The notes: generated by a model from the sequence alone, not told the origin. A stretch of DNA of 64,000 nucleotides from Patescibacteria group bacterium (GCA_038064595.1 JBBTSV010000009.1:8769-72768), one strand, 5' to 3'. Shown: positions 13,491 to 48,581, counted from the stretch's first letter. Translations and numbers: made by a program.

Positions 13491-15467
13491 ATGAAAAAGG
13501 ATTGGGGATTTGATACGCGCGATATTGATACCACGATGCGGCCGCAGGATGATTTTTATAAGTATGTGAACGGCGGGTGGTTGAACAAGAATCCGATACC
13601 GGCTGAAGAGTCGAGTTGGGGGTCATTCCGTATTTTGCGCTACGAGACCGAGAAGCAGCTGAAGCAGATTGTGACAAAGCTCGTTGCGCAGCCCCGACGC
13701 CGGGGGGTCGGGGCCCCGACCGATGCGTCGGGGCTCGTGCGTGACTTGTACCGCTCGGGGCTCGACATGCCGGCGCGTAACCGCGCCGGCCTCGCGCCGC
13801 TTAAGTCGTGGCTCGAGAGGATTGAGAAAATCAGGGATGTGAAGTCACTCGTCACCACCCTCGCCCACTTCGAGAAGATCGGTGGGGGCGGCCCGTGGGG
13901 CCTCATGGTTGATCAAGACATGAAGGACAGCCGGAAGTATGTGGTCTATGTACACCAGAGCGGGCTGGGGATGCCCGACCGCGACTACTACCTGAAGGAC
14001 GATGCCGAGTCCAAGCGGGTGCGGAGCGCCTATGAGAAGCATCTCGACGCGATTTTCATACTTTCGGGCGTGACGCGTGCTGAAGCCAAGAAGAAGCGCG
14101 ATGTTGTGATGCAGATCGAGAACGCGATTGCAAAGATCTCAATGAGCAAAGAGGAGCTGCGGGATGTGGATAAGACGTATCACAAGATGACCGTGCGGGC
14201 GCTTGCGAGCCTCTCGCCCGCCGTCGACTGGCAGAGCTACTTCAAAATCGTCGGCACGGGCACGCTACGTGAGGTCATCGTCATGCAGCCCACATTTATC
14301 AAGGCTGCTGCTGCCCTCTTGAAGAAGTTCTCGATCGAGGAATGGCAGACCTACCTCACCTGGCACCTCGTCGGCGGCGCCGCGAGCTACCTAGGGGAGA
14401 GATTTGAGAAACAGAACTTTGCCTTCTACGGCACCGTTCTCTCGGGCGTGAAGGTGATGAAGCCCGCGTGGCGCCGCGCACTCTCTACGGTCAACGGCTG
14501 CCTCGGCGAGGTCCTCGGGCAGCTCTATGTCAAAGCGTACTTTAGCCCACGCGCAAAGAAAGAGATCGAGACAGTCGTCACAGATCTCTTCAGAGCCTAC
14601 GAAAATCGGATCAAGAATCTCGACTGGATGAGTGTCGCGACCAAGAAAAAAGCACTCGTGAAGCTCTCGCAGGTGACGCGCAAGCTCGGCTACCCAGACA
14701 AGTGGAAGAGCTACAAGGGTCTCGTTATCCGACCCGACGACTACTTTGGCAATATTCTGCGTGCGTCACTCAAGGAACACGCACGGATGATGCGTCGGCT
14801 CCAGAAGCCGGTCGACCGTAAGGAGTGGTTCATGACCCCGCAGACCGTGAATGCCTACTGTAGCTTTGGCCTCAATGATGTCGTCTTCCCTGCCGCTATC
14901 CTCCAGCCGCCCTTCTTCAATGTCGATGCTGACGACGCGGTCAACTACGGCTCGATCGGCTCGGTCATAGGACACGAGATCACGCACGGCTTTGACGATC
15001 AGGGTTCCAAGTTTGACGGCTACGGCAACCGCACCACCTGGTGGACCCCGATCGACCGCAAACGATTTGAGAAAAAAGCGCACGTACTGGTCGAGCAGTT
15101 TAATCGCTACCGCGTCGCCGGCGGACTCAGGGTGAACGGCGAGCTCACGCTCGGCGAGAATATTGCCGACCTCGGTGGTGCGTCAATCGCCTTTGACGCC
15201 TATCAGCTCCGGCTGAAGAAAACGGGACGCAAGGATATTGACGATCTGACGCCCGAACAGCGATTCTTTATGAGCTTCGCCCTTTTTGAGCGCGAGAACC
15301 GCCGCAAGGAGGCGCAGATGACGCAGGTGCTCACCGATCCGCACTCGCCCGGCCAATTCCGCATCAACGGTCCCGCGTCAAACCTCCACGAGTTCTATGA
15401 AGCGTTTGGGGTCAAAAAGGGTGATGCGCTCTTTCGTGAGTCGTCAAAGCGTGCGAAGATTTGGTAA
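13491..15467 (+). CDS. M13-family zinc metallopeptidase (PepO / neprilysin-like)
   Basis: HEITHGFDD zinc-binding HExxH, ENIADLGG, NAYC motifs. Carries an in-frame E2 palindromic insertion near the N-terminus (RRGVGAPTDASGL). Confidence 0.9.
   Translation: MKKDWGFDTRDIDTTMRPQDDFYKYVNGGWLNKNPIPAEESSWGSFRILRYETEKQLKQIVTKLVAQPRRRGVGAPTDASGLVRDLYRSGLDMPARNRAGLAPLKSWLERIEKIRDVKSLVTTLAHFEKIGGGGPWGLMVDQDMKDSRKYVVYVHQSGLGMPDRDYYLKDDAESKRVRSAYEKHLDAIFILSGVTRAEAKKKRDVVMQIENAIAKISMSKEELRDVDKTYHKMTVRALASLSPAVDWQSYFKIVGTGTLREVIVMQPTFIKAAAALLKKFSIEEWQTYLTWHLVGGAASYLGERFEKQNFAFYGTVLSGVKVMKPAWRRALSTVNGCLGEVLGQLYVKAYFSPRAKKEIETVVTDLFRAYENRIKNLDWMSVATKKKALVKLSQVTRKLGYPDKWKSYKGLVIRPDDYFGNILRASLKEHARMMRRLQKPVDRKEWFMTPQTVNAYCSFGLNDVVFPAAILQPPFFNVDADDAVNYGSIGSVIGHEITHGFDDQGSKFDGYGNRTTWWTPIDRKRFEKKAHVLVEQFNRYRVAGGLRVNGELTLGENIADLGGASIAFDAYQLRLKKTGRKDIDDLTPEQRFFMSFALFERENRRKEAQMTQVLTDPHSPGQFRINGPASNLHEFYEAFGVKKGDALFRESSKRAKIW
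13691..13734. repeat. E2 nested-palindrome element copy 1 (CCCGACGC...GCGTCGGG), in frame in the peptidase gene
   Basis: gccccgacgccggggggtcggggccccgaccgatgcgtcggggc: outer arms CCCGACGC/GCGTCGGG, inner arms TCGGGG/CCCCGA. Confidence 0.85.
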
Positions 15468-15469
15468 TC

Positions 15470-15844
15470 ATGTCCAACACCACCGACGCGGTTATCGCCT
15501 TTGACTTCGACGGCGTCATTGCCTCGTACCAGGGCTTTATCTCTCATGCTGACGTTCAGCCACCGAATCCGGAAGTGGTAAAAACAATGCAGCTCCTGCG
15601 CGAGAAAGGATGCAAAATTATGATTCACTCCACCCGCGGCAATGACTTTCTCGCGCACTACTGCGAGCAGTTCTCACTTCCCGTCGACTACATCAATCGT
15701 CGCCCTGATCTGGTTGGCGAGAACCCCGGTAAGCCCATCGCCTTTGTGTATATCGATGATCACGCGCTCTGCTATCGAGGTCAAAACGCCGAGGACCTTG
15801 TCGACGAGGTAGTCAACTTCAAGCCCTACTGGCGCGACGCGTAA
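15470..15844 (+). CDS. Small HAD-superfamily phosphatase-like protein
   Basis: N-terminal IAFDFDGVIA with the DxDG(T/V) motif I of HAD hydrolases. Confidence 0.55.
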   Translation: MSNTTDAVIAFDFDGVIASYQGFISHADVQPPNPEVVKTMQLLREKGCKIMIHSTRGNDFLAHYCEQFSLPVDYINRRPDLVGENPGKPIAFVYIDDHALCYRGQNAEDLVDEVVNFKPYWRDA

Positions 15845-15898
15845 CTTTATACACTACTCATTGCTCGACCAGCTAACTGGGTTGCTATACTACTTTCA

Positions 15899-16369
15899 AT
15901 GAGTCCTGACTTACTTCAGTGGGCCACGATCCTCTTTAAAGAGCGGGGCGGGACATACGAGACCCTCAGCGCTGAACTGCTCAAGACCGGATATACCCGT
16001 AAGGACATCGATGCGGTATACGACGAGATGGTGCGGCTTGGGCACGCGCTCCCTCCTCCTCCCGCACCAGAAAAGCATATGCCCACGAGTGCTCAGAGCA
16101 CCCCAAGCGCGCCGCACGCGCCGACCTCACCAGAAGAAGTTCAGGCACACGTTGACGAGGCACGCGTTGTCGATGAAGAGGTGCACACCCGCATCTCAAA
16201 GCCTGTCGCGTTTCTCATACTTGGCATCATCCTAGCTCTTGTCGCTTCACTCTTCGGCACCTACTGGTACGCAAAAAATAATCCGCAAGGTTCCCTCGCT
16301 GCGGCCATAAACAAAATAGCCGTCACTCTCTACCTCAACCCGCCCTTCTCGCAAACCCCGGCGCCCTAG
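15899..16369 (+). CDS. Hypothetical protein with C-terminal transmembrane helix
   Basis: ORF with a Pro-rich linker and a single C-terminal hydrophobic helix. Confidence 0.35.
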   Translation: MSPDLLQWATILFKERGGTYETLSAELLKTGYTRKDIDAVYDEMVRLGHALPPPPAPEKHMPTSAQSTPSAPHAPTSPEEVQAHVDEARVVDEEVHTRISKPVAFLILGIILALVASLFGTYWYAKNNPQGSLAAAINKIAVTLYLNPPFSQTPAP

Positions 16370-16383
16370 CACTTGTTAAAGCA

Positions 16384-16408
16384 CGAGGGGCCCCGGTGGG
16401 GCCCCTCG
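16384..16408. terminator. Bidirectional hairpin terminator between convergent genes (CGAGGGGCCCC-ggt-GGGGCCCCTCG)
   Basis: Perfect 11-bp GC stem with a 3-nt loop. Confidence 0.6.
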
Positions 16409-16411
16409 AAT

Positions 16412-16786
16412 TCATCGCCTCTGCGGGGGAAACCTCGCGAAATGCTCGAACACATGGGCGAGCACGCCCAGAGTCAGAAGCATCCCGATGATTGCCGTCC
16501 AGGCGACCGGTGAGGTCGGTGAGGTATGGTAGGAGAACACTGCCCCCACCACCAAACCCACAGGGACGAGTCCAGCCACCACCGCGATCTCCGGAAGAGC
16601 CGGCCCCTCTTCGTTCTTACCGATATCGGCCAGAAGTGAGAGGAGTAGGCTCATGCCCGAAAACGGCATGGAAAGCCGCCAGAGCCAGTCGCCTGCCTCA
16701 AGCGACATGCTCGCCCACACTCCTCCAACGAGAAACGACACCCCCGTCATAAGGAGGCCCCCGTGAAAGATCTTCTCTGCCTTCAT
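16412..16786 (-). CDS. Hypothetical membrane protein
   Basis: Four predicted hydrophobic helices; start taken at the internal MKAEKIF. Confidence 0.4.
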   Translation of the reverse strand: MKAEKIFHGGLLMTGVSFLVGGVWASMSLEAGDWLWRLSMPFSGMSLLLSLLADIGKNEEGPALPEIAVVAGLVPVGLVVGAVFSYHTSPTSPVAWTAIIGMLLTLGVLAHVFEHFARFPPQRR

Positions 16787-16829
16787 GTGACCTCCTTGTC
16801 GAAGTGAAAGCAGGTTGACTGTATAGCGC

Positions 16830-17522
16830 CTACGAGATCCAGTCAATCGGGGTCTCGCCGTGAGCCTCCAGATAACCGTTCACTTTTTTAAAATGGCCAT
16901 TGCCGAAGAAACCCGATGCGGCCGAGAAGGGTGAGGGGTGCGCGGATTCAAGCACCAGGTGTTTAGTGCGGTCAATATGCGCGCCCTTGGCGCGAGCATA
17001 GTTGCCCCACAGCATGAAGACGAGGCGCGTGCGCTCCTCGGAAAGCGTGCGGATAACTGCATCGGTAAACTGCTCCCATCCTTGATTCTGATGCGAGCCA
17101 GCCGTGTGTGCCCGCACGGTGAGAGTTGCATTGAGAAGTAAGACCCCCTGCCTCGCCCACCGCGTGAGATCTCCTCCGCGATTGATGGACACTACGTGTC
17201 CATCAATCGCGCCGTATTCATCTGCAATTTCTTTGAAAATGTTTTGAAGTGAGGGCGGGGTCGCGACCCCCTCATCGACCGCGAAGCAGAGACCGTTGGC
17301 CTGATGCGCCCCATGGTAGGGGTCTTGGCCGAGAATAACGACCTTCACCTGCTCAAAGGGGCAAAGATCAAACGCTCTGAAGATATTCTTGGGCGCGGGA
17401 TACACCACTCCCTCCTGGTATTCTTTTTTTACAAAACTGGTCAGCACTGTGAAATATTCTTTTTCAAATTCACCAGAGAGCTTCTCCTTCCACGTTTTCT
17501 CAATCTTCACCTCCATAAACAT
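16830..17522 (-). CDS. ung: Uracil-DNA glycosylase (family 1)
   Basis: VVILGQDPYHGAHQANGLCFAV (GQDPY water-activating loop) and HPSPFSA near the C-terminus. The start codon overlaps the upstream gene's stop as TAATG, inside a REP. Confidence 0.9.
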   Translation of the reverse strand: MFMEVKIEKTWKEKLSGEFEKEYFTVLTSFVKKEYQEGVVYPAPKNIFRAFDLCPFEQVKVVILGQDPYHGAHQANGLCFAVDEGVATPPSLQNIFKEIADEYGAIDGHVVSINRGGDLTRWARQGVLLLNATLTVRAHTAGSHQNQGWEQFTDAVIRTLSEERTRLVFMLWGNYARAKGAHIDRTKHLVLESAHPSPFSAASGFFGNGHFKKVNGYLEAHGETPIDWIS

Positions 17523-17547
17523 TAGGACACTGGGTGTCCTAACTTTT
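17520..17547. repeat. REP palindrome copy R1 (TTAGGACAC-TGG-GTGTCCTAA)
   Basis: Same palindrome flanks the RAYT gene at 48662, 49338 and 49391. Here it encodes the last eight residues and the stop codon of the MGMT-like gene. Confidence 0.85.
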
Positions 17548-17791
17548 CTGCGTCGAGGAGCTTTCTTTTTACGTCAGGTCCGCCGCGGTTATACTCGCCG
17601 ATCTGTCCATCGCTCCGAACAACGCGGTGGCACGGCACCGTGGGGTCATAATTGTTTTTCATCACGGTGCCCACAGCGCGCGCGGCGCCTGGGTGCCCGA
17701 TGGCGCGCGCCACCTCGCTGTAACTCTTGGTCTGCCCTTTGGGAATCTGGCGCACGGCATCGCGCACGCGGTCGGCAAAGCTGCTCCTCAT
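17522..17791 (-). CDS. Methylated-DNA--protein-cysteine methyltransferase-like (Ogt/Ada C-terminal-domain only, 89 aa)
   Basis: HPGAARAVGTVMKNNYDPTVPCHRVV, with the PCHRV active-site motif. Start taken at the internal MRSSFADR. Confidence 0.7.
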   Translation of the reverse strand: MRSSFADRVRDAVRQIPKGQTKSYSEVARAIGHPGAARAVGTVMKNNYDPTVPCHRVVRSDGQIGEYNRGGPDVKRKLLDAEKLGHPVS

Positions 17792-17792
17792 A

Positions 17793-18656
17793 TTATTTCT
17801 TTCCCGACGCTTCGGTCGGGACCCCGACCCCTTGGCGTCGGGGCTTATTCTTCGCATGCAGTGCTTGAAGCGCTTTCCCGGCTGCCTCACGGTAAGTGCA
17901 ATGCTCGCAGGGGCCGCCGCCAAAGGAGGTTCCTATCTTAGGGATCTCGTCACTCATGAGCATTGCCTTTAGGTCATACACCGCCCCCTCGACCCATGCA
18001 TCGCTTCCGGTATACGCTATGAGTTCGACGTCAAACTCGAGCTTCCCGTCAAAAGCCTCGGCATCTGCCTTCCCGTTCACGTAGACAAAGTAGGCCGTCG
18101 GCGAAACGCTGAAGCCATTTTTGCGAAAGAGCCACTGATAGATCTCGAGCTGGCGCTTGTACGCATCGTAAAGGTCGTCCTCGGTTGAAGGGCCGACCTT
18201 CTTACTGGTCGCTTTATAGTCGGCGATGATGAGCTCGCCGGTGGGCGTCACCCAGACGTCGTCGATCCCTCCGCGCACAAGAATGTTAGTCGGCTCATGG
18301 AGATGGCTTATCCCGCGCCGGAGCGCATCACGCCACTCCTCCATCCGCTCGTCAGCAAAAGGGACAGCATCGAGCCCGTATTTCTGGAGCAAAGGATGTC
18401 TGGTCTTGTGGGCGCGATGGATGTCAAACTCACGCTTCAGGAGCTCATCGACCGCGTTGTTGAGAGTGAAAGAAGGCATCGAGGGGCGCTTCACCCCGAG
18501 CCGCATATCGAGGTAGGCACAGCGCGGACACTCGACAAAGAGGTCGATCTTGGAGCGACTCACCTTAAAGGGCTCCGGTGAAGCGGGGTCAAAGGTACTG
18601 CTTTTGCGGGTGAAGGCCATGTTAGGAAAGGGTGAGCGCGTCGGTGAAGTATGCAT
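17793..18656 (-). CDS. PD-(D/E)XK nuclease, Cas4/RecB-like with four Cys (putative Fe-S cluster)
   Basis: N-terminal FVECPRCAYL, IADYKATSK (D-x-K), C-terminal GGGPCEHCTYREA. The C-terminal tail RRQGVGVPTEASGKK is encoded by E2 element copy 2. Confidence 0.65.
   Translation of the reverse strand: MHTSPTRSPFPNMAFTRKSSTFDPASPEPFKVSRSKIDLFVECPRCAYLDMRLGVKRPSMPSFTLNNAVDELLKREFDIHRAHKTRHPLLQKYGLDAVPFADERMEEWRDALRRGISHLHEPTNILVRGGIDDVWVTPTGELIIADYKATSKKVGPSTEDDLYDAYKRQLEIYQWLFRKNGFSVSPTAYFVYVNGKADAEAFDGKLEFDVELIAYTGSDAWVEGAVYDLKAMLMSDEIPKIGTSFGGGPCEHCTYREAAGKALQALHAKNKPRRQGVGVPTEASGKK
17802..17844. repeat. E2 nested-palindrome element copy 2, forming the C-terminal tail of the Cas4-like gene
   Basis: tcccgacgcttcggtcgggaccccgaccccttggcgtcggggc. 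Confidence 0.85.
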
Positions 18657-20484
18657 CGTACCACGCCGCGAGCATCATGAGGATAAAAATCTTGCGGGCG
18701 TTGTTACGCGCGCCTGAGACGTGGTCCTGGATGAGCTTGCGCACGATAGTCATATCAAAATGCTGCGCGAGAAAGGGGTGGTTCACCAGAGGTCCCTGCC
18801 AGTCGGTGCGTTCCTTGAGCCACGCGGCAAGCGGGATCGGGAAGCCGAGCTTTTTCCGCTTCTGGGTGGTCGGCGGGACAAAGGCCTTGGCGGCCTTGCG
18901 CAAGAGGTACTTGGCATTCTCTACCGTGCCGTCCTGATAGCGTAGACGATCAGGGATCGTACGGGCAAAGTTGGCCACCTTCATGTCGAGAAAGGGAACC
19001 CGCAGCTCAAGCGAGTGCGCCATGGTCATCTTGTCGGCCTTCGCGAGGATATCGCCGGGGAGCCAGAGGTGCATATCGGCATACTGCATCTGGGTCGGCT
19101 CTGACCATCTCTGGACCTTCGCATAGAACGGATGCAGGTCGATACGTTTGTGAGGTGTACCCTTCCAGATCTTCCGTGCATCAGCGTCAGAAAAGATGTA
19201 GGCGTTCCCGATATAGCGTTCCGCGAGCGGCTTGCCGTAGCGCTTTAGAAAGTTGAGGCCGCGCAGAGAAAACGGGAGGCGGCCAAGCCAGAGCAACGGG
19301 ACGCGCAGCAGTGCCGGTAAACGTGCGAACGTGGCAAAGGAGTAGGGCTCGCGGTAAATCCCGTACCCGCCAAAGAGTTCGTCTGCTCCCTCGCCGGAGA
19401 GCACCACCTTCACGTGCTTGTGTGCCTCGCGCGCGAGGAAGTAGAGTGCGATGGCGGCCGGGTCAGCCACCGGCTCGTCAAAGTGCCACGCAATCTTCGG
19501 TAACATTTTGAAATATTCATCGGGGTCAAGCACGATCTCCGTGTGCGTTGTGTGAAGTGCGTCAGACTGCTCGCGCGCCTCGGCAAACTCATTGATCTCT
19601 TTTGACCCGATGGTGAAGGTCTTCAACTCTCCGGTGGGGTGCACCGCGCGGATGGCACCCACGATCAGCGCGCTATCGACGCCGCCGGAGAGGAAGGCTC
19701 CCAGCGGCACGTCGCTGATAAGATGATGTGCGACCGAGTCCTGTAGAATCTCCTCCAGCTCTTTGGTCGCTGTTCCCTCCTCCATGTGCCCATTCTCTTC
19801 AAAGCGATAATCCCAGTAGGTGGTGGCCTCGGCCTTACCGCTCGCCGCGTCGATCATGAGGTAGGTCGCCGGTGGGAGACGGTAGATCCCCTTGAAGAGA
19901 GTCTCGGGGAGCGGGTTGTACTGAAATGAGAGGTATTGGTAAATCGCCGCTTCATTCACCACCTTCTCAAAACCAGGATAGGTGAGTAAGCTCTTCACCT
20001 CCGAGCCGAGCGCACGTATCTTTCCTTCTTGTTCCAAGTAGTAGAGCGGCTTAATGCCAAAGGGGTCGCGCGCCGCCATCACCGTACCCTTTTTCATATC
20101 GTAGAGAAAGAAGGTGAACATCCCGCGCAGGAGCTTGACCACATCGGCGCCGCGCTCCTCGTACAGGTGGAGAATGACCTCCGTGTCACTCTCGGTCTTA
20201 AAGGTGTGTCCGCGCTCGAGGAGGCCGGTGCGGAGCTCGCGGTAGTTGTAGATTTCGCCATTGAAGACGATGAGGAGTGAACCGTCTTGTGAAGTGATCG
20301 GTTGCTTGCCGCCCGCAACGTCGATGATACTCAAGCGCCGCATCCCGAGCGCGACCGCCGGGTCAACGAAGGTGCCGCTATCGTCGGGGCCACGGTGTAT
20401 AATGCGCTCCAGCATCAGATCAAGCGCCTCCTGGGCCCCCTTTTTGCCCCCCACGGGGTGAATGATGCCAGCAATACCACACAT
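18622..20484 (-). CDS. asnB: Asparagine synthetase (glutamine-hydrolysing)
   Basis: MCGIAGI N-terminal nucleophile Cys; SGGVDS PP-loop motif (FLSGGVDSALIV). Confidence 0.9.
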   Translation of the reverse strand: MCGIAGIIHPVGGKKGAQEALDLMLERIIHRGPDDSGTFVDPAVALGMRRLSIIDVAGGKQPITSQDGSLLIVFNGEIYNYRELRTGLLERGHTFKTESDTEVILHLYEERGADVVKLLRGMFTFFLYDMKKGTVMAARDPFGIKPLYYLEQEGKIRALGSEVKSLLTYPGFEKVVNEAAIYQYLSFQYNPLPETLFKGIYRLPPATYLMIDAASGKAEATTYWDYRFEENGHMEEGTATKELEEILQDSVAHHLISDVPLGAFLSGGVDSALIVGAIRAVHPTGELKTFTIGSKEINEFAEAREQSDALHTTHTEIVLDPDEYFKMLPKIAWHFDEPVADPAAIALYFLAREAHKHVKVVLSGEGADELFGGYGIYREPYSFATFARLPALLRVPLLWLGRLPFSLRGLNFLKRYGKPLAERYIGNAYIFSDADARKIWKGTPHKRIDLHPFYAKVQRWSEPTQMQYADMHLWLPGDILAKADKMTMAHSLELRVPFLDMKVANFARTIPDRLRYQDGTVENAKYLLRKAAKAFVPPTTQKRKKLGFPIPLAAWLKERTDWQGPLVNHPFLAQHFDMTIVRKLIQDHVSGARNNARKIFILMMLAAWYDAYFTDALTLS

Positions 20485-20504
20485 ATTGAACTACTATACC
20501 ACGC

Positions 20505-28144: not shown

Positions 28145-29014
28145 ATGACCAAGGACGAGCTGTGGCTCCTCACTGAAAAATACGGCGGCGCACTTTCTCC
28201 CGCATACGAAGCCGACCGCGCCCGGCTCGCCTCTGGCGAGCCGCTGGCCTACGTCATCGGCTGGCAACCTTTTCTCGGTCTCAAAATATATCTCGACTCC
28301 CACCCTCTCATTCCCCGACCAGAAACGGAGTGGTGGGTCGACGCACTGCTGCGAGAGCCGAGTCGGGGCGTTCCCGAGAAGAGAGTCCCGCAGCGCGTCG
28401 GCGCGAGGGGAGGCGATTTTTCAGCAGAAAAAGACGCCGCTCTCCTCGAGGGAACACTCGACGAGGCGCCACTGAAATTTCTCGACCTCTGCGCCGGATC
28501 GGGCGCGATAGGGTGTGCAGCATTGAAGCTGACTGACGCCGACATCTATTTTGGCGAGATCGACCCGGCGCACCAAGCAACGATTGAGAAAAATGTCCGT
28601 GAGAATGATCTCGACGCGTCGCGTGCACATATTAAAATCGGTGATCTCTTTGAGCCCTTTGGTGACATGCGTTTCGACATCATCGCCTGTAACCCGCCAT
28701 ACATTCCTACGGAGCGAGTGCTCGAGAAAAGCGTTGCCGACTACGAGCCCGCGCTCGCGCTCCGCTCGGGCAACGACGGACTCGACCTGATCCGTCGTAT
28801 CGCCACCGAGCTCCGACAGCACCTCACTCCTGCCGGAGTTGCCTGGATCGAGTGCGACAGCGCGCACGCGGCAGCTCCGACGCCCAGAGGGGGCGGAGCC
28901 CCGATCACAAGCGTCGGGGCCGCGTGCGCGCTGTTCACCTCCGCAGGCTTCTCTGCCACGATACGCACCGACCAGTACAAAGTACCCCGAGTGATTGTAG
29001 TATCATTCTCGTAA
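28145..29014 (+). CDS. prmC: Release-factor glutamine N5-methyltransferase (PrmC/HemK)
   Basis: DIIACNPPYIP (NPPY) motif, SAM-binding DLCAGSGAIG. Contains low-complexity insertions and an in-frame E2 element near the C-terminus. Confidence 0.8.
   Translation: MTKDELWLLTEKYGGALSPAYEADRARLASGEPLAYVIGWQPFLGLKIYLDSHPLIPRPETEWWVDALLREPSRGVPEKRVPQRVGARGGDFSAEKDAALLEGTLDEAPLKFLDLCAGSGAIGCAALKLTDADIYFGEIDPAHQATIEKNVRENDLDASRAHIKIGDLFEPFGDMRFDIIACNPPYIPTERVLEKSVADYEPALALRSGNDGLDLIRRIATELRQHLTPAGVAWIECDSAHAAAPTPRGGGAPITSVGAACALFTSAGFSATIRTDQYKVPRVIVVSFS
28873..28920. repeat. E2 nested-palindrome element copy 3, in frame in prmC
   Basis: gctccgacgcccagagggggcggagccccgatcacaagcgtcggggcc. Confidence 0.8.
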
Positions 29015-40846: not shown

Positions 40847-43800
40847 CTACTCAGCATCTGGCTCGGGTGGCAGGTTGAGTGGCTCAACATCAAGCGCGAG
40901 GCCGCGGATCTGATTGGTAAGAACCGCAAAGGACGCCGGCGTGCCTGAGTGACTAATCGGCTCGCCCTTCACAATAGCGTCAAAGGCTGCCGAACGGCCC
41001 TGAATATCGTCAGACTTGATGGTGAGCATTTCGCGGAGTGTGTACGCTGCGCCATACCCAAGCAGCGCCCACACTTCCATTTCACCAAAACGTTGCCCAC
41101 CGTTCTGTGCTTTACCGCCCAAGGGCTGTTGGGTGATAAGACTGTAGGGACCAATCGAGCGCATGTGGATCTTGTCTTCAACCATGTGATGGAGCTTCAA
41201 GATGTACATGTACCCAACCGCGATATGTTGTGCAAAGGCCGCACCCGTCCGTCCGTCAAAGAGCTGCATCTTACCGCCGCGATCAAAGCCCGCAGCTTCA
41301 AGCTCGTTACGGATCTCGTCAGGTGTCGCCCCAGCAAACGGCGGAACTACCGCTTGGTACCCTAGGGTGTGAGCAGCAAGCCCGAGGTGCATCTCGAGGA
41401 TTTGGCCGAGATTCATACGGCTCGGGACGCCAAGCGGGGTGAGAATGAGGTCGATTGGGTTCCCGTCTTTATCAAACGGCATATCGGCGATCGGGAGCAC
41501 TCGTGAGATCACTCCCTTGTTTCCGTGGCGACCTGCGAGCTTGTCACCCACTGAGACGTTGCGCACCTGCGCCACCGTCACCACAATCTTCTTGATGACA
41601 CCGCTCTCAAGCTGGTCTCCCTTCTCGCGTGAGAAGACCCGCACACCGATAGTACGTCCCCGCTTGCCTCCCTCCATGCGAAGACTGGTGTCCTTTACGT
41701 CCTTCGCCTTATCACCAAAGATGCTGCGCAGGAGGCGCTCCTCGGGCGTGAGCTGGGTCTCGCCCTTCGGCGTCACCTTACCGACGAGGATGTCACCTGG
41801 ACGTACCTCTGCACCAATGCGGATCACGCCCTCTTCATCAAGATTTTTGAGACGGAGCTCACCGACATTTGGAATATCGTGCGTCGTGGTCTCCGGACCG
41901 AGCTTGGTGTCGCGTACGACACACTCGAAATCTTCAATGTGCACGGTAGTAAACTTGGCTTCCTCCACGAGACGCTCTGAGATAATGATGGCATCCTCAT
42001 AGTTGGCACCACTCCAGCTCATGAAGGCAACGCGCACATTCTGACCGAGCGCGAGCTGACCATGATCGGTCGAGGAGTTATCGGCGAGCACATCACCTTT
42101 CTTGATCGTATCTCCAAGCACCACAGACGGGCGTTGCATGAAGGTTGAGTTCTGGTTGGTCTGGGTCAAGCCCTGGAGGCGATATTCTTTCTTTTTCCCC
42201 TCTTTGTTCTCGACGACAACCTTGCGCGCATCGACGTAGGAGACGGTACCGGACTCTGTGGCGACCACCAAGCGACCGGTACTCATTGCAGCGTGCTCCT
42301 CAATACCCGTCGCCACGAGCGGCGCTTCAGGAATGAGCACAGGAGTTGCCTGCTTTTGCATGTTAGAGCCCATCAGAGCACGGTTTGCGTCGTCGTGATC
42401 AACAAATGGGATCATGCAGGTTGCGATACTAAACATTTGATAGGTTGACGCGTCCATAAGCGTGATCTGTTCACGCGACACAATAATAGGGTCACCCTTG
42501 AAGCGCGCCTCGACCCGATCAGTGATGATCCGGTGTTGCTCGTCGAGCTGGGTCGCGCCGTGCGCAATGAGTTCAAGCTCTTCGTCGAGCGCGTTGAGAT
42601 ACACAATCTCTTCTGTCACTTTCCCGTTCTTCACCTTGGCGTATGGAGTCTCAATAACGCCAAAGTCATTGGTACGCGCGTGGGTCGCCAGGCGCAAAAT
42701 GAGACCAATGTTTTGTCCTTCTGGGGTGTGGATGGGACACAGGCGACCGTAGTGAGAAGGGTGCACGTCACGCACCTCAAAGCCTGCACGCTCGCGCGTG
42801 AGACCGCCCGGCCCGAGCGCGGAGAGGGTGCGCATATTCTCGAGCTCCGCGAGAATATTCTGCTGATCCATAAACTGCGAGAGTTGGTTAGCCGTGAAGA
42901 ACTCATGCACCGACGCGTGGAACGGGCGCGGATTCACAAGTGCCATCGGGAGTGTGGTCTCGCTCTCGATTGTCGACATGCGGTCTTGGATGTTGCGCTT
43001 CATGCGGCTCATGCCGACCCGCATGCGCGCCTGTAAGAGCTCGCCGACAAAGCGTACGCGACGGAACCCAAGGTGATCGATGTCATCTGGGCGCGCATGC
43101 GGGTCGGCATTGAGCTTCGTAATCTCTGAAATGATGCGGACGAAGTCAGCGAGCGTGAGGACACGCTTCTCGAGTGCTTTCTCGGTGGTGGGGAGACCAA
43201 AGCGAGAGTTAAGACGGTGACGCCCCACCTTACCGAGGTCGTAACGTTCAGCCGAGAAGAGCGACTGAACGAAGTTCTTTGCGTTTTCAGGGGTCGCGAG
43301 ATCGCCATCGCGCATACGGCGATGGATCTCGATATACGCTTCCTCAACCGACTTCGCCTCCTCATGCTCAAGAGTCGCCTTAATAGCGGCAAGTGCGAGC
43401 GGGTCGTTGGCAAAGTGCTTAGTGACCGCCTCGCCCACGCCACCACCAAAGACCGTGAGGAGTTCAGTGATTGGAAACTTGCGCTTACGATCGATCTTCA
43501 CAAAGATCGCGCCATCTGCTTCAGAGTCAAACTCGATCCATACCCCGCGAAGCGGGATGATCTTAGCGCCAAAGAAGGGCTTCCCGCGCAAGAGTTCAGA
43601 AACAAAAAATACCCCAAAGCTTCGTGCAAGCTGTGGGACAATCGCACGCTCCACCCCCGAAACGATGAATGAGCCGTGTGGCGTCATCATCGGCATGTCA
43701 GCAAGGAAGATCTCCTGTGACTTCTCCGAGCCGAGCGTCTTATTAATGAGCTTCACGGTCGCTTTGACTGGAGCCTCATAGGTGCGCATATTCTGACGCG

Positions 43801-44026
43801 CGAAATCCTCATCATACTTTGGCTCACCCACTTCAAACTTCTCAAACTGGAGTTCAAACTTTTTACCCGAGTAGTCGGTAATAGGCGAGAACTCACGGAA
43901 CAATTCCGCGAGACCGTCCTTAAGCAACCAGTCGAAGGAGCCACGCTGGTGGCCGACGAGGTCAGGGAACGACACCTTGGGAGCCCGGTACGCACCAAAG
44001 GTCTTCTGCACGAGGTTCTTGCGCAT
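40847..44026 (-). CDS. rpoB: DNA-directed RNA polymerase subunit beta
   Basis: Conserved GRHGNKGV, rifampicin-region and fork-loop motifs; length 1059 aa. Confidence 0.95.
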   Translation of the reverse strand: MRKNLVQKTFGAYRAPKVSFPDLVGHQRGSFDWLLKDGLAELFREFSPITDYSGKKFELQFEKFEVGEPKYDEDFARQNMRTYEAPVKATVKLINKTLGSEKSQEIFLADMPMMTPHGSFIVSGVERAIVPQLARSFGVFFVSELLRGKPFFGAKIIPLRGVWIEFDSEADGAIFVKIDRKRKFPITELLTVFGGGVGEAVTKHFANDPLALAAIKATLEHEEAKSVEEAYIEIHRRMRDGDLATPENAKNFVQSLFSAERYDLGKVGRHRLNSRFGLPTTEKALEKRVLTLADFVRIISEITKLNADPHARPDDIDHLGFRRVRFVGELLQARMRVGMSRMKRNIQDRMSTIESETTLPMALVNPRPFHASVHEFFTANQLSQFMDQQNILAELENMRTLSALGPGGLTRERAGFEVRDVHPSHYGRLCPIHTPEGQNIGLILRLATHARTNDFGVIETPYAKVKNGKVTEEIVYLNALDEELELIAHGATQLDEQHRIITDRVEARFKGDPIIVSREQITLMDASTYQMFSIATCMIPFVDHDDANRALMGSNMQKQATPVLIPEAPLVATGIEEHAAMSTGRLVVATESGTVSYVDARKVVVENKEGKKKEYRLQGLTQTNQNSTFMQRPSVVLGDTIKKGDVLADNSSTDHGQLALGQNVRVAFMSWSGANYEDAIIISERLVEEAKFTTVHIEDFECVVRDTKLGPETTTHDIPNVGELRLKNLDEEGVIRIGAEVRPGDILVGKVTPKGETQLTPEERLLRSIFGDKAKDVKDTSLRMEGGKRGRTIGVRVFSREKGDQLESGVIKKIVVTVAQVRNVSVGDKLAGRHGNKGVISRVLPIADMPFDKDGNPIDLILTPLGVPSRMNLGQILEMHLGLAAHTLGYQAVVPPFAGATPDEIRNELEAAGFDRGGKMQLFDGRTGAAFAQHIAVGYMYILKLHHMVEDKIHMRSIGPYSLITQQPLGGKAQNGGQRFGEMEVWALLGYGAAYTLREMLTIKSDDIQGRSAAFDAIVKGEPISHSGTPASFAVLTNQIRGLALDVEPLNLPPEPDAE

Positions 44027-44222
44027 GTGAGTTTTGCGTGAAGTAATAATTTCTCTATATATAAATGCGAACGCACGAAGGACTTCCCTCGCTTGTGCGT
44101 TTCTTCAGTTCCCGCTATAAATCTTGCTCACCCCCTCACATCGTAACTCAGTCGTATCTTGTATCAGCAGAGTACCACCCCTACTCCACCCATGCAACCC
44201 CCTATGGGGATAAGCAAAACCC

Positions 44223-44528
44223 CTACTTCTCGCCTGTCTTTGCGTCGTCCGACCCGGATTGAAAATCTTCAACCGAGAACGGGCTCTTCATGCCTGGCGT
44301 CCAGTCCTCGACTTTGATTTCCCCATCAGTCTTTTCATACTCACCTACGTTATAGGCAATGAGTTGGGAGAATCGCTTCATATGTTCGGGAGTAAATGCA
44401 AAGACTTGCGCATTCGCCCCAGACAGTATTGCTAGTAGGATTGTCTTACCAGCATTGCCACGCATCACTGCCACATTGGTGTCGTCTGCAAACTGCTTCG
44501 GCGCACTTCTCCAAAATTGTTCATTCAT
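44223..44528 (-). CDS. Hypothetical small protein (101 aa) downstream of repeated promoter module copy B
   Basis: ORF from the internal ATG (MNEQFWRSAPKQ...), because the predicted transcription start of module B lies downstream of the longer ORF's start. Contains a P-loop-like GNAGKT but has no assignable family. Confidence 0.3.
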   Translation of the reverse strand: MNEQFWRSAPKQFADDTNVAVMRGNAGKTILLAILSGANAQVFAFTPEHMKRFSQLIAYNVGEYEKTDGEIKVEDWTPGMKSPFSVEDFQSGSDDAKTGEK

Positions 44529-44595
44529 ATATATCAATTGGCTGATAACTCGATCTGCCGAAATCACATACGTCCTCGTACGATTTGACCTTACT

Positions 44596-44737
44596 ACTAT
44601 CACCTTTTACTGCACCCCGCGTCAACCTCTGCGCAATGGTTCACACCCCCTTGGCTCGCAAAACGCGGTGCGCTGCTGCTGGTATGATATATCATACCTT
44701 TTCCCTGATCGACTTAGGGACTTACGATGTCCCTATA
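44596..44737 (-). repeat. Promoter-containing repeated module, copy B
   Basis: Shares the -35 TTGAC, gaacca, gcgttttgcg, GGTATGATATATCATACC palindrome and GGGACTTACGATGTCC motif with copy A at 1859-1976. Confidence 0.8.
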
Positions 44738-45025
44738 AAAGCGCACCGCCCCGGGTGGGGCGGCGTGGCGCACAAGGTCGATCACCGTTTAGTCTTCTTA
44801 TTGTTCGGCGTGACCGACTTCTTGGCACGGCTCTTTGCCGCTGCGAAATCACCAACGTAGACGCTGACGAGGCGACGCACGCCCGAATCAGGATGATTCA
44901 TCTTGTCGAACATCCTCGCCTCGTGTGCGAGTGAAGGAACTCCTTTTGCCATGGCGAACTCCTTTGGTTGACACGTCTGGGCCTGCGAACAGGCTTGGGG
45001 ATTAGTTTACCACTCAAAACGCGAA

Positions 45026-45694
45026 TTATTTCTTCTCGCGCCACTTTTCAATCTCGGCGTGGTGGCCGGTTTGGAGGACTTTTGGCACGCGATAATTCTT
45101 CTTTTTGTATGAAATAGTTTCTGGCCGGGTGTAGACGGCACTTGACGCGACGCGACGCTCCTCGACGGAGGCGTCCTTACCGAGAACGCCCGGGAGCCGG
45201 CGCGTCACCGCGTCGACTACCGCGAGCGCCGGTAATTCCCCACCCGTGTAGACCGCCTCGCCCACGGCATACTCCTTCACTGGCGCGAGGGTCTTGAGGA
45301 TTTTCTTGGCGCGCTCATCGATCCCCTCGTAGCGGCCGCATACGAGGATCACGTCGCTATACTTTTTTATAAGCGCGTCAGCGTCTTTATTGGTGAACTG
45401 CTTCGCGCTCGGGCTGAACCACACAATCACCGATTTCTTCAACTTGGGGGTCCGACCCCCAAGTGATTTCTGAACGGCTTTGACTACGGGAAGCGCCATC
45501 ATCACCATCCCGGGGCCCCCGCCGTAGGGCTTTTCATCTACTTTCTTGTAGCTCCCTGCAGGGCCCGCGACGAAGTCGCGGGGGTTCTGATACTTCACCA
45601 CTATCTTCTTCTCCTTACGCGCACGTCCGATAATCGACGCGCCCAAATATGCGTCGCACGCTTCTTCAAAAAGAGTGACGAGATGGAATCTCAC
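45026..45694 (-). CDS. trmD: tRNA (guanine37-N1)-methyltransferase
   Basis: SPOUT-fold TrmD motifs (VILVCGRYEGIDERA, GGELPALAVVDAV). Contains an in-frame 21-nt P1 palindrome encoding LGGRTPK. Confidence 0.85.
   Translation of the reverse strand: MRFHLVTLFEEACDAYLGASIIGRARKEKKIVVKYQNPRDFVAGPAGSYKKVDEKPYGGGPGMVMMALPVVKAVQKSLGGRTPKLKKSVIVWFSPSAKQFTNKDADALIKKYSDVILVCGRYEGIDERAKKILKTLAPVKEYAVGEAVYTGGELPALAVVDAVTRRLPGVLGKDASVEERRVASSAVYTRPETISYKKKNYRVPKVLQTGHHAEIEKWREKK
45442..45462. repeat. P1 palindromic element copy c, in frame inside trmD
   Basis: cttgggggtccgacccccaag. Confidence 0.9.
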
Positions 45695-46011
45695 AGCGAG
45701 AGTTCGTCGACCACTTGGTCGACGGTCTTATGCTCGGAAGTAGTCGGGATCTCGCGCTTGCCGCCCACCGGCTCGTTGATCTTGAGGCTGACGCGCGCAT
45801 TGTGCTTCATGCCAAAAACGCGCAGAAGCGGGCGCAGTGCCAGCGTGGCGAGCTTGCCGTCTTTTCCAATAATCCGACCCATGTCGTCGGGGTGGACCGT
45901 AAGGGTGAGGAGGACGCCCAGGTTGTCGGCCGTGCGCTCGATCACTACCGCCTCAGGGTGGTCAACGAGTGCCTTGATGACATAGTCGAGAAATGCATGT
46001 TCCGGTTCCAT
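45691..46011 (-). CDS. KH-domain RNA-binding protein (YlqC-like)
   Basis: GRIIGKDGK GXXG loop of the KH fold; conserved position between rpsP and trmD. Confidence 0.75.
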   Translation of the reverse strand: MEPEHAFLDYVIKALVDHPEAVVIERTADNLGVLLTLTVHPDDMGRIIGKDGKLATLALRPLLRVFGMKHNARVSLKINEPVGGKREIPTTSEHKTVDQVVDELSL

Positions 46012-46044
46012 ATTGAGAATAGTAGCACCGCCTGTAGCGGTGTT

Positions 46045-46533
46045 TTATGCAGCAGGAGTTTCCTCTGCAACCGGCGTGACCTCTGGTGCAGGTTCTGCCT
46101 CTGCGACGACTTCAGCCTCAGTCGGCATTTCTACCGGAGCTTCAGCGGCAGGAGCTTCCTCAACTGCCGGTGCTTCTGCGGCGACCTTCTCTGCAGCAGT
46201 AGCGTCAGCAACGGCCTTGGCCGCCGCTGCCTCCTCGGCGATCTTTGCCTCATTCTTCTGCGGACTCTTCTTGGGAAGGACATTCACCTTCTTGCCCGCA
46301 ATCACCCCCTTGTTCACTAGGAGATTGTGGATCGAGTCGGTCGGCTGGGCCCCTTTGCTGATCCAGTGCTTGACCTGCTCCTCGTCGAGGGTGAGCGCCT
46401 TGCTGCGCGGATTGTAGGTACCGAGGAGCTCGACGATATTGCCCGCCTTGGCAGCGCGCTCTTTCTCGAGGACGACAATGCGAAACGCCGGATCATTGGT
46501 CCGGCCGATGCGCTGGAATCGAATCATCAACAT
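46045..46533 (-). CDS. rpsP: 30S ribosomal protein S16 with about 80-aa Ala/Glu/Pro-rich C-terminal extension
   Basis: MLMIRFQRIGRTNDPAFRIVV...LGTYNPR S16 signature. C-terminal tail AAEKVAAEAPAVEEAPAAEAPVE... Confidence 0.85.
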   Translation of the reverse strand: MLMIRFQRIGRTNDPAFRIVVLEKERAAKAGNIVELLGTYNPRSKALTLDEEQVKHWISKGAQPTDSIHNLLVNKGVIAGKKVNVLPKKSPQKNEAKIAEEAAAAKAVADATAAEKVAAEAPAVEEAPAAEAPVEMPTEAEVVAEAEPAPEVTPVAEETPAA

Positions 46534-46580
46534 GAGAGCGACTATAGCAGAAGGCGCATAATATTGCTAGAGTACGGGAA

Positions 46581-48581
46581 ATGTCGGCAGACGCATCTCT
46601 CGAAGGCCCCATCGTCATGACCCGCAAGGGCTTTGGCTTCTTCCCCTTGGGCGACGATCAAGAAGACCTCCTGATCCCGCCGGAGTGGACCGGCCACGCG
46701 CTCTCAGGCGACGTGGTCAAGGTCGAGCGTGTCGGGACCTATCAAGACCCTTCAGGCCGGATGGCTCCGAGGGAGGCTGGGAAGGTGGTCGAGATCGTCT
46801 CGCGCGCTCGAGAGACATTTGTCGGCACTCTTATTGCCCCGACGCCAGAAGTCGGGGTCCCGACCGAAGCGTCGGGAAAGAGTGAGATCACATTGCTCCA
46901 GTGTGACTATAAGAAGATGTATGTGCCGATTGTCATACTCGACCGCGGTGATGCACCGCTCGGCTACAAGGTGCTTGTGCGCCTGGTAAGCTGGGAGGCC
47001 GACAAAGCGTATCCCCTCGGCGAGATTGAAGAAGTGATCGGCCCCGCAGGAAATCATGAGACCGAGATGCGCTCGCTCGCACTTGGGCAGGGGTTCAGGA
47101 GCGACTTCCCTCCTGGCGTCGTCACAGCAGCACGGGATCTCGAGATGCGCGGTCGGCAGATGCTCGCGGACGAAGCCGAGAATCCCAAACGACGTGATTT
47201 TAGAAAAGTACCGACCTGCACCATCGACCCCTTTGATGCCAAAGACTTTGACGATGCCCTCTCGGTGCAGACCTTGCCCGATGGAAACATTGAAGTGGGC
47301 GTGCACATCGCCGACGTCTCCTTTTTTGTGAAGCCCGGCAACGAGCTCGACAAAGAGGCGCGTGAACGGGCCACGAGTGTCTACCTCGTCGACCGCACGA
47401 TCCCGATGCTCCCCCACATTCTCTCCACCGACCTCTGTTCACTCAATCCCAATGAAGATCGTCTGTCGGTCTCGGCAGTGTTCACGCTCGATACGGATGC
47501 AAACATTGTGAATGAATGGTTCGGCGAAACGGTGATTCACTCTGATAAACGCTTCACGTATGAGAATGCACAAGAGGTGCTCGATGCCGGAAAAGGCGAG
47601 CTTCATGCTGAACTCTCGCTCCTCTACGACCTCTCGAAGAAGATCCGCACGCGCCGCCAAGAGAAGGGGGCGATCGAGTTCGACACCGCTGAAGTCAAAA
47701 TCGAACTCGATGAGACGGGTAAACCAATCGCAATAAAACTCAAAGAGCGCAAAGCGACCAATCTCCTCATTGAAGATTTTATGCTCCTTGCCAACGAGGC
47801 CGTCGCCAAGCACTTGAATAAGCTCACCCGTAACGGCGGCCCCCACTTCGCCTCGCTCTACCGTATCCACGACGAGCCGGACTCTGACCGCATCGAGAAC
47901 CTCGCACACCTCCTGCGCGTCATGGGCTATCACCTGAAAACTGCCGGCGGCAAGGTCACCGGCGCAGAACTGAACAAACTCATGGAGTCGGTCAAGGGCA
48001 CGCCCGAGGAATACCTGGTCAAGACCGCGACCCTGCGCTCGATGAGTAAGGCGGTCTACACGACCCGCAACATTGGCCACTTTGGTCTGGCGTTTGAGTT
48101 CTATACTCACTTCACCTCCCCGATCCGTCGTTATCCCGACCTTATCATCCACCGCTTGGTGAAGGCGCACAGCGGCGGCGACCCTATCACGCCCGCGGAG
48201 ATGCAGGAGTTTGACCGGCTCGCGGTGCACGCCTCGGAGCGCGAGGTGGCGGCCGCCGACGCCGAACGTGATTCTATCAAGATGAAGCAGGTTGAATTTC
48301 TCGCGGAACATATCGGCGAGACCTTTGACGCCGTGATCTCGGGCGTGACCGAGCGCGGCCTCTACGTAGAAGAGCAGACCACCCACGCCGACGGCATGAT
48401 CAACATCCGCGTCCTCGGCGAGCTCCCGGATCAGGTGGGTGATTACTTCGACTTCGAAGAAAAACAGTACAGGCTCGTCGGCCGTCGGACCAAGAAGAGC
48501 TACCGTCTCGGCGACCCCATCCGCGTGAAGCTCATCGCCGCCCGTATTGCCGAAAAAGAGCTCGACTTCCTCCCCGCCTAA
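46581..48581 (+). CDS. rnr: Ribonuclease R (RNB family 3'-5' exoribonuclease)
   Basis: Cold-shock-like N-terminus; RNB catalytic motifs (DPFDAKDFDDALS, GHFGLAFEFYTHFTSPIRRYPDL); C-terminal S1 domain. In-frame E2 element near the N-terminus (EVGVPTEASGKS). Confidence 0.9.
   Translation: MSADASLEGPIVMTRKGFGFFPLGDDQEDLLIPPEWTGHALSGDVVKVERVGTYQDPSGRMAPREAGKVVEIVSRARETFVGTLIAPTPEVGVPTEASGKSEITLLQCDYKKMYVPIVILDRGDAPLGYKVLVRLVSWEADKAYPLGEIEEVIGPAGNHETEMRSLALGQGFRSDFPPGVVTAARDLEMRGRQMLADEAENPKRRDFRKVPTCTIDPFDAKDFDDALSVQTLPDGNIEVGVHIADVSFFVKPGNELDKEARERATSVYLVDRTIPMLPHILSTDLCSLNPNEDRLSVSAVFTLDTDANIVNEWFGETVIHSDKRFTYENAQEVLDAGKGELHAELSLLYDLSKKIRTRRQEKGAIEFDTAEVKIELDETGKPIAIKLKERKATNLLIEDFMLLANEAVAKHLNKLTRNGGPHFASLYRIHDEPDSDRIENLAHLLRVMGYHLKTAGGKVTGAELNKLMESVKGTPEEYLVKTATLRSMSKAVYTTRNIGHFGLAFEFYTHFTSPIRRYPDLIIHRLVKAHSGGDPITPAEMQEFDRLAVHASEREVAAADAERDSIKMKQVEFLAEHIGETFDAVISGVTERGLYVEEQTTHADGMINIRVLGELPDQVGDYFDFEEKQYRLVGRRTKKSYRLGDPIRVKLIAARIAEKELDFLPA
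46838..46877. repeat. E2 nested-palindrome element copy 4, in frame in rnr
   Basis: ccccgacgccagaagtcggggtcccgaccgaagcgtcggg. Confidence 0.8.

Follow-up and report, generated by a model that had tools for sequence, protein, structure and literature searches.

Here we describe E2, a short double-hairpin repeat that lies in frame in four protein-coding genes of a 64,000-nucleotide stretch of DNA from a Patescibacteria group bacterium (GCA_038064595.1, JBBTSV010000009.1:8769-72768), referred to below as the window. E2 is spread widely over the Patescibacteria, or candidate phyla radiation (CPR), whose genomes are tiny, streamlined, and thought to be poor in repetitive DNA. Copies within genes are filtered for length and reading frame, the same sites are occupied in separate lineages, and copies at the same site are more conserved than the genes that host them. 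In our judgment, E2 is probably a short, non-autonomous hairpin repeat of these bacteria, similar to dimers of repetitive extragenic palindromic (REP) sequences and to the Rickettsia palindromic elements (RPEs), and would be mobilized by an activity supplied in trans.

A sequence-only reading of the window had reported four in-frame palindromic inserts, located in genes for an M13 peptidase, a Cas4-like nuclease, PrmC, and RNase R. The positions and the quoted peptides were confirmed, and the host genes agree with their Pfam assignments (Table 1). By sequence, the window corresponds to a metagenome contig of 139,562 bp (ERZ1292625) obtained from Hainich groundwater in the 0.1-µm fraction, and NCBI labels its proteins as Patescibacteria. 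A covariance model trained on E2 copies from other genomes, with which the window was searched with filters off, recovered exactly these four copies (c1 to c4) in 64 kb, with the next best match at 18 bits, and gave no false match in 235 kb of control DNA. A metagenome scan with the M13 alignment, used as a negative control, gave just distant M13 genes (40-47% identity). The half-unit pattern CCCGACN{3,12}GTCGGG matched the window six times and the converse pattern GTCGGGN{0,6}CCCGAC three times, each against 0.06 expected, which excludes a chance origin of these motifs. E2 density in the window is ~1 per 16 kb, and Rfam gave no match at the gathering threshold over the whole window.

The four copies differ in how well they are preserved. 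The motif proposed at first is intact in c1 to c3, with c1 laid out as CC-CCGAC-G-CCGGGGG-GTCGG-GG / CC-CCGAC-CGAT-GC-GTCGG-GG. The prmC copy, c4, is longer and departs from the motif at two arm positions, with GGCGGAG instead of GTCGGAG and CCCCGAT instead of CCCCGAC; its arms contain an A.G mismatch and a G.T pair. In the nuclease gene the stop codon lies 9 nt past c2. The length of c3 is not a multiple of three, and this is compensated at its borders to give a net gain of 39 nt, or 13 amino acids.

Table 1. E2 copies, their host genes, and other palindromic features of the window (positions counted from the first nucleotide of the window).
Feature	Position	Strand	Details
Host gene 1, M13 family metallopeptidase (PepO-like)	13491-15467	+	Pfam PF05649, PF01431; PDB relatives
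E2 copy c1	13692-13733	+	42 nt; in frame in M13 peptidase open reading frame; peptide QPRRRGVGAPTDASGL; 55.8 bits
Host gene 2, PD-(D/E)XK nuclease	17793-18656	-	Pfam PF12705
E2 copy c2	17802-17843	-	42 nt; C-terminal tail of PD-(D/E)XK (Cas4-like) nuclease; peptide KPRRQGVGVPTEASGKK then stop; 60.4 bits
Host gene 3, HemK/PrmC-type methyltransferase	28145-29014	+	Pfam PF05175; HemK structures
E2 copy c4	28875-28919	+	45 nt, decayed; in frame in prmC/HemK; peptide APTPRGGGAPITSVG; 40.6 bits, E 4.5e-8
Coding palindrome of prmC predating c4	28857-28934 (arms 28857-28872, 28919-28934)	+	encodes DSAHAA/AACAL; 16-nt perfect inverted repeat
Host gene 4, ribonuclease R	46581-48581	+	Pfam RNB, CSD2, OB_RNB; PDB 8cdu, 5xgu
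E2 copy c3	46837-46877	+	41 nt; in frame in N-terminal cold-shock region of RNase R; peptide APTPEVGVPTEASG; 57.9 bits
Y1_Tnp/RAYT gene	48682-49329	-	adjoins RNase R; GTTAGGACAC-NNN-GTGTCCTAAC hairpins on both sides (48661-49425)
Other hairpins of the GTTAGGACAC-NNN-GTGTCCTAAC family	17177-17211, 17514-17550, 59953-60008		

The structure of E2 was tested by covariation over 114 distinct copies from about 84 assemblies; the genome-scan pattern fixed the CCGAC/GTCGG cores, and only the free positions are informative. The E2 unit is a ~20-nt hairpin composed of a 7-bp stem (NNCCGAC/GTCGGNN), one bulged G, and a small inner stem-loop, in which inner loop and mini-stem take up 3-9 nt. The usual element consists of two such units in inverted orientation with a 0-nt spacer, 39-48 nt in all, with the symmetric trinucleotides YAR...YTR outside the two hairpins; the CAG...CTC flanking c1 agrees with this consensus. 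The two bases 5' of each CCGAC pair with the two bases 3' of the next GTCGG in 93-98% of copies, by three Watson-Crick pair types, and covariation was found at the four free stem positions (CG/UA; CG/UA/AU; CG/GC/UA; CG/UA/AU) and at the loop-closing pair of hairpin 1. The tandem-hairpin model reached a covariation score of 0.261, compared to 0.090 in shuffled alignments (0 of 500 shuffles scored as high), and 175 double-sided changes, compared to 51. CPR loci also contain monomer hairpins (37 in 936 kb), compared to a single one in the 204 kb of control DNA. Folded as single-stranded DNA, the window copies had z-scores of -3.2 to -3.9.

The sequence-only reading had described E2 as a nested palindrome, that is, a single hairpin or cruciform with outer arms CCCGACGC/GCGTCGGG and inner arms GTCGGG/CCCGAC. 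Every window copy can indeed be drawn in this way, and c1, the two stems of which are identical, has one long nested hairpin as its minimum-energy DNA fold; however, c2 and c3 are predicted to fold as two hairpins. Among the 114 copies, moreover, pairing is absent in 59 for the outer pair 1-48, in 41 for the outer pair 2-47, and in 50 for the pair 23-26, and the outer/inner pairing showed no covariation (score of 0.031 compared to 0.038 in shuffles, with 496 of 500 shuffles as high). Because the free positions covary just in the tandem model, the tandem hairpins are the conserved structure and the nested pairing is not. We therefore give the nested form next to no credence and regard it as refuted as a conserved structure, though it may still arise in homodimeric copies.

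Comparison of relatives revealed presence and absence of E2 for all four genes, bearing out the claim that the segments are in-frame insertions without counterpart in orthologues. In RNase R, 13 residues are missing in 118 of 120 orthologues (76-82% identity), where the empty site reads ...ATAGAG/GAAGAG..., and the 15-amino-acid insert of prmC is missing in 118 of 120 orthologues as well, only the query and one other (P0242) having it. The PD-(D/E)XK nuclease was compared with its 150 best cluster representatives, whose alignments all stop by query residue 276 and in which no E2-type peptide was found; its tail past the conserved CxxC motif is 32 residues long, compared to a median of 15. Among 120 M13 orthologues, 107 retain an ancestral loop, KVQKMKxxKAGSPEQ, which has equal length in a solved structure; 11 have E2, and 2 have an apparent deletion remnant, 'ASG'. 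In these last two (P0200 and P0214) the whole loop is gone and just '(T/G)ASG' precedes MVRD, apparently through internal deletion in an allele that had E2, suggesting that the E2 hairpin promotes deletions. In line with the surface-loop location that had been anticipated, the inserts are low-confidence loops in two AlphaFold models. In M13 the insert forms loop 67-78 (predicted local distance difference test score [pLDDT] of about 59) between helices 45-66 and 79-91, and in RNase R residues 86-103 (pLDDT below 50) connect strands 79-85 and 104-108.

Reading-frame constraints are evident in the wider set of copies. Lengths that are multiples of three were found for 38 of 47 intragenic copies (81%) but only 11 of 63 intergenic-like copies (17%; Fisher p = 2.6e-11). 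The E2 core has no stop codon in any frame, and copies within long open reading frames (ORFs) have no in-frame stop. In the favored frame CCG-ACG encodes Pro-Thr and GTC-GGN encodes Val-Gly, a reading that applies to both hairpins in 23 of the 47 intragenic copies, where 1/9 would be expected (p = 1.2e-10), and intragenic copies mostly read xPTxxVGxPTxxVG. All three frames are nevertheless found, even at one orthologous site, and orientation relative to the coding strand is unbiased (18 same, 15 opposite). The likeness of the Gly/Pro/Thr/Ser-rich loops that had been noticed in the window arises because stop-free GC-rich DNA is read mainly in one favored frame. The filtering for length and frame argues for translation of the inserts and against their splicing or bypass. 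Intragenic E2, being almost always of multiple-of-three length, stop-free, and located in low-confidence surface loops in two models and in one C-terminal tail, is therefore translated as neutral Gly/Pro/Thr/Ser/Ala/Val linkers.

Two other explanations bear on the same data. If selection acted on the xPTxxVGxPTxxVG peptide as a linker or recognition loop, the DNA palindrome would be a by-product, and both the excess of PT/PT readings and the likeness of the window peptides would follow. About half of the copies lie outside long ORFs, however, all frames and even switches within an element occur (GVGAPTDASG, GRGPDPSASG, and SGLRPKRRG come from the same DNA), covariation is seen in base pairs and not in residues, the hosts are unrelated, and the segments are low-confidence loops in models; we find a protein module of this kind extremely improbable. 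We are just as skeptical that intragenic E2 is removed from mRNA or bypassed by the ribosome, in the manner of the GC-rich hairpin inserts ('byps') of some yeast mitochondria or of T4 gene 60. Stable GC-rich hairpins in essential genes (SecA, aminoacyl-tRNA synthetases, UvrB) speak for such a process, but it would free the inserts from constraints on length and stops, in conflict with the multiple-of-three excess of intragenic copies. Exceptions to this excess are compensated at their borders, as in c3, and the frame is biased to benign residues.

The motif search that had been suggested was run with a degenerate pattern on a genome set in which each GTDB species was represented once, and the context statistics given here rest on 131 sites among the listed matches. 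The arms are conserved well past the four window sites: E2 was found at at least 119 loci in about 84 species-level assemblies, in genomes with a GC content of 30-60%. Labels of the listed loci are almost all CPR, comprising Nomura-, Taylor-, Yanofsky-, Zambryski-, Kaiser-, Adler-, Jorgensen-, Komeili-, Doudna-, and Uhrbacteria, as well as Paceibacterota, Minisyncoccia, and 'Saccharibacteria'. A few listed matches have non-CPR labels, and one of these, in a Chloroflexia genome of 71% GC, resembles chance. From viral contigs E2 is effectively absent, with one match in which the outer stems are unpaired.

Only 36% of the 131 sites lie deep inside ORFs of at least 150 codons, compared to 63% of random positions, whereas 48% lie in short-ORF, presumably intergenic DNA, compared to 23% of random positions. 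Because E2 is depleted in long ORFs and enriched in short-ORF DNA, coding copies appear to be a tolerated minority and not a preferred target. The sequence-only reading had seen in E2 a second, independent family that invades coding sequences; E2 is indeed separate from the window's GTTAGGACAC hairpins, but the preference for coding DNA does not stand. Based on heuristic ORFs, no bias to gene 3' ends or convergent pairs was detected (28 tandem, 10 convergent, and 6 divergent neighbors, compared to a background of 453/116/93), and a terminator or 3'-end role was rejected for want of positional bias. The 68 ORFs that host E2 fall into 55 homology groups and include SecA, IleS/ValS-like and LeuS tRNA synthetases, UvrB, a PilB-type ATPase, and an M17 peptidase. 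In the Taylorbacteria assembly MHSK01 (L017, L059, L069, L076, and L106), E2 is part of a composite repeat, GATACGAAT-ATACGA-[E2]-ATG-GATACGAAT, of which at least 20 copies, mainly intergenic, are present.

The same site is often occupied in lineages that are not closest relatives. In a neighbor-joining tree of M13 proteins calculated without the loop, the 11 genes that carry E2 are dispersed, each beside an E2-free relative, and in two sister pairs the DNA flanks track the sister lineage up to the patch on both sides. Likewise, the two RNase R genes with E2 lie far apart (distance of 0.204, rank 110 of 120), and each has closer E2-free relatives. Same-site copies are more alike than their hosts: c2 and the copy at the same site in L092 are identical over 42 of 42 positions at 70.4% identity of the host gene DNA, other same-site copies are identical at 38 of 41 (93%) and 38 of 45 (84%) positions with host DNA at 63-71% and 59-78%, and two more same-site pairs are 84-89% identical in host proteins of 48-51% identity.

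This excess of conservation brings in the main rival explanation, according to which E2 is not selfish DNA but a selected cis-acting site, bound or processed as a DNA or RNA hairpin by a CPR-conserved protein. This protein might be a nucleoid factor, one that acts in replication or repair, an RNase, or a receptor for DNA uptake; E2 would be maintained by selection, and gene copies would be tolerated since a certain density of sites would be needed. Besides the orthologous and same-site copies just described (84-100% identical for the former), the compensatory changes that preserve stem pairing, the one core common to many CPR classes with genomic GC contents of 30-60%, a two-fold symmetry as found in sites for dimeric proteins, and the lack of strand bias in coding copies all agree with it. 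On the other hand, presence is patchy even among sister orthologues, position with respect to gene ends and neighbor arrangement equal the background, density is modest, with E2 missing from 22 kb of a related genome (L003), direct repeats flank some copies, and we know of no cognate protein. We consider a cis-acting site rather unlikely.

Signs of mobility come from the insertion sites. With the Taylorbacteria composite-repeat loci excluded from the statistic, flanking direct repeats of at least 9 nt were found at 6 sites, compared to 0.33 expected, and of at least 10 nt at 3 sites, compared to 0.03. These repeats, which resemble target-site duplications (TSDs), are 9-14 nt long and 7-12 bases away from the hairpins, and at two coding sites the additional DNA amounts to 63 nt altogether. 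Many Taylorbacteria copies are surrounded by the direct repeat ATACGAAT, which was rejected as a TSD, for it belongs to the longer composite repeat. In prmC, c4 is located in the exact center of a 33-nt palindrome, which is uninterrupted over 23-33 nt in two prmC genes without E2 (L208 and L209), where a G and a C have been exchanged between the arms in a compensatory manner. This palindrome is a property of prmC itself, conserved in its coding sequence irrespective of E2. In RNase R, c3 is flanked by CACTCTT and AAGAGTG. Flanking inverted repeats were dismissed as a general E2 feature, as they are not enriched (3.1% compared to 2.5%). The ancestral M13 site has a weak hairpin, TCCCGA...TCGGGA, like the E2 arm pair.

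We propose that E2 hairpins would form on single-stranded DNA, where a trans-acting, hairpin-specific enzyme would recognize them and copy E2 into new sites. The targets may be hairpin-like or E2-like proto-sites, or else cleavage at such sites may be followed by copy-repair from another E2. The TSD-like repeats, the location of c4 and perhaps c3 within prior palindromes, and the repeated occupation of the same sites suggest targeting or repair of this kind.

The window has a gene for a Y1_Tnp transposase of the REP-associated tyrosine transposase (RAYT) type next to RNase R (Table 1). Together with the GTTAGGACAC hairpins that flank it, this gene is a classical REP-RAYT 'REPtron' of the other palindrome family of the window. 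A similar RAYT arrangement was found downstream of RNase R in L002, and the RAYT of L005 is flanked by ATGTAGGACGT hairpins; in all three cases (window, L002, and L005) the flanking hairpins are of the form GT(T)AGGAC...GTCCTAAC. As RAYTs sit with another hairpin family, RAYT as the mobilizer of E2 was left unsupported rather than excluded.

Several observations weigh against a mobile, REP-like E2. None of the RAYTs of the window, L002, and L005 is flanked by E2, and tblastn placed a Y1 gene within 8 kb of E2 in only 3 scanned or related loci (L005, L093, and L002; 119 scanned) besides the window; indeed, no transposase or other enzyme was linked to E2 in the loci examined. TSD-like repeats are present at about 5% of sites, and their variable length and spacing fit no classical transposase. 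In M13, E2 together with four codons, 'LVxQ', replaces 42 ancestral nt and is no pure addition. Three origins of this replacement of 'VQKMKxxKAGSPEQ' by 'LVxQ' plus E2 (duplication of MVRD codons, post-insertion deletion, and patch recombination) were each weighed, and none fits all lineages. The excess conservation over host genes is not expected of decaying selfish DNA and implies constraint, concerted evolution, or re-insertion. As for the numbers themselves, coding and intergenic classes were set by ORF length with no gene caller, and the invariance of the CCGAC/GTCGG cores is not evidence, because the scan pattern fixed them.

A further reading, which we put forward as speculative and rather improbable, is that E2 is the trace of a hitherto undescribed, CPR-wide, hairpin-guided copy-and-repair ('homing-like') system. 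An enzyme for CCGAC...GTCGG hairpins on single-stranded DNA would cut hairpin-like proto-sites, such as TCCCGAgcaaatggtTCGGGA in the M13 gene and the center of the prmC palindrome, and repair would proceed from another E2. Such a system would explain the independent conversion of the same loop in many lineages with replacement of ancestral codons, near-identical copies in hosts whose proteins are 50-80% identical, and the varying length of the direct repeats. As a variant of it, E2 may double as a DNA-uptake or recombination signal in naturally DNA-scavenging bacteria.

Returning to E2 as a REP- or RPE-like repeat, no earlier description of the family was found, and a full-text literature search yielded no paper joining REP terms with CPR names. 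Rickettsia palindromic elements were reportedly described by Ogata et al. in 2000. Like them, E2 is palindromic, lies in frame in unrelated housekeeping genes, is present or absent among orthologues without a known transposase, and adds translated surface segments that the protein fold accommodates. The two differ in size and range, comparing by description: E2 is 39-48 nt long, encodes 13-15 amino acids, and occurs in Patescibacteria, whereas RPE families are about 100-150 bp, with about 150 bp and 45-50 amino acids for RPE-1, and are known from one genus. Neither same-site recurrence in separate lineages nor TSD-like repeats are known to have been reported for RPEs. The GC clusters and double-hairpin elements of fungal mitochondria are likewise very short, GC-rich, and mobile and invade coding regions in frame, with some of them bypassed, but they belong to eukaryote organelles and have no sequence relation to E2. 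The DNA uptake sequences (DUS) of Neisseria and the uptake signal sequences (USS) of Pasteurellaceae have a short clade-wide core, often form inverted pairs, occur frequently in genes in frames with harmless peptides, are spread by recombination, and are better conserved than their surroundings; they arise mainly by substitution with no change in length and need no hairpin covariation. E2, in contrast, is a length-adding insert, and DUS/USS are ~10-20 times denser (about 1 per kb).

The resemblance to REPs can be stated more closely. REP dimers and REPINs (inverted REP doublets) are built, as is E2, of palindromic 20-40-nt units that occur as singletons but mostly as inverted dimers, sometimes with just 0-2 bp between the units and with unlike partners among them, and are dispersed, mostly intergenic, with a minority in genes (PMC3733652; PMC3116915). 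Intragenic REP dimers encode 15-30 amino acids, and their hosts include UvrB, tRNA synthetases, and RNA-binding proteins (PMC3733652). RPEs are reviewed in PMC10969869, and the short elements RPE-4 and RPE-6 are CGTC-type REPs, which have no dedicated transposase (Di Nocera et al. 2013, PMC3733652). By definition, a CGTC-type REP has an 8-9-bp stem opening with complementary A/T, a 4-5-nt loop, and a CCA-like tail (PMC3733652). E2 departs from this with its 7-bp stem (NNCCGAC), its GC-only core, no A/T start, and no CCA tail. Nor does it have the unpaired terminal GTAG or CGTC of REPs, its CGTC being internal and made up of the bulged C and the first three 3'-arm bases. Unlike REPs, it does not flank RAYT genes, shows no 3'-end enrichment, and has a core common to many classes of the CPR superphylum. 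E2 does share the short repeated palindromic unit, with its ~20-nt hairpin in 4 dimers per 64 kb of the window and at least 20 copies in MHSK01; by the neighbor counts on heuristic ORFs given above, no preference for sites downstream of genes (convergent or co-directional) was seen. It is like a REPIN in having two inverted units, but the REPIN-type long hairpin across both is not conserved, and unlike in REPIN-RAYT systems no cognate single-copy RAYT flanked by E2 was present in the window, L002, and L005. E2 is thus closest in behavior and architecture to REP dimers and short RPEs and fails both REP superfamily definitions.

Mobile elements that use palindromes as targets offer a last comparison. 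IS1397 and ISKpn1 insert into the loops of REP hairpins. ISPpu9 is reported to be inserted into REPs, too (PMC8450116). Like these insertion sequences (ISs), E2 is found at the apex of a prior palindrome (c4 and perhaps c3); unlike them, it is 42 nt long and encodes nothing. With respect to miniature inverted-repeat transposable elements, E2 is wholly inverted repeat and has direct repeats of 9-14 nt at about 5% of sites, at variable length and distance, and no parent IS was found in the loci examined.

The presence of E2 in essential genes (SecA, tRNA synthetases, UvrB, and RNase R) means that selfish or semi-domesticated DNA shapes CPR proteins. E2 accounts for some lineage-specific loops of these proteins and is a source of annotation and alignment artifacts. 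It is also a marker of CPR contigs, as the covariance model separates it cleanly from background. Finally, same-site occupation and excess conservation make it testable how transposase-less REP-like elements move and persist.

Further inserts were observed in two of the host genes. The prmC gene of the window has a second in-frame insert at 28353-28455 (about residues 70-105), an imperfect palindrome of ~100 nt that encodes ~32 amino acids, with arms at 28370-28385/28440-28455 and 28353-28364/28433-28444. It is missing from HemK structures and from about 9 of 60 close orthologues, and in other prmC orthologues the frame in which related DNA is read seems to vary (..SQRDGARGGDFSAEKDAAL.., ..MGVRLGQAARSA.., and ..ERTERDGVSQSNFSAEKY..). 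Among RNase R orthologues (P0055, P0062, P0064, P0096, P0115, P0016, P0036, P0075, P0092, and others), short lineage-specific inserts recur, namely, RPYSAEATK at two sites, PTASSE/ASSEAL near the N terminus, and PSTxLGT past the VPIVIL strand, and these suggest further insert families in these genomes. A fifth E2 candidate in the window, at 4285-4353 (18 bits, E 0.012), was not accepted, as it falls in a lipase-like GAPxSGAP motif. This GC-rich palindrome, located in an ORF at 2813-6169 on the minus strand, encodes MVGAPQSGAPESIGA in a lipase-like domain and is probably a conserved protein motif, not a decayed E2.

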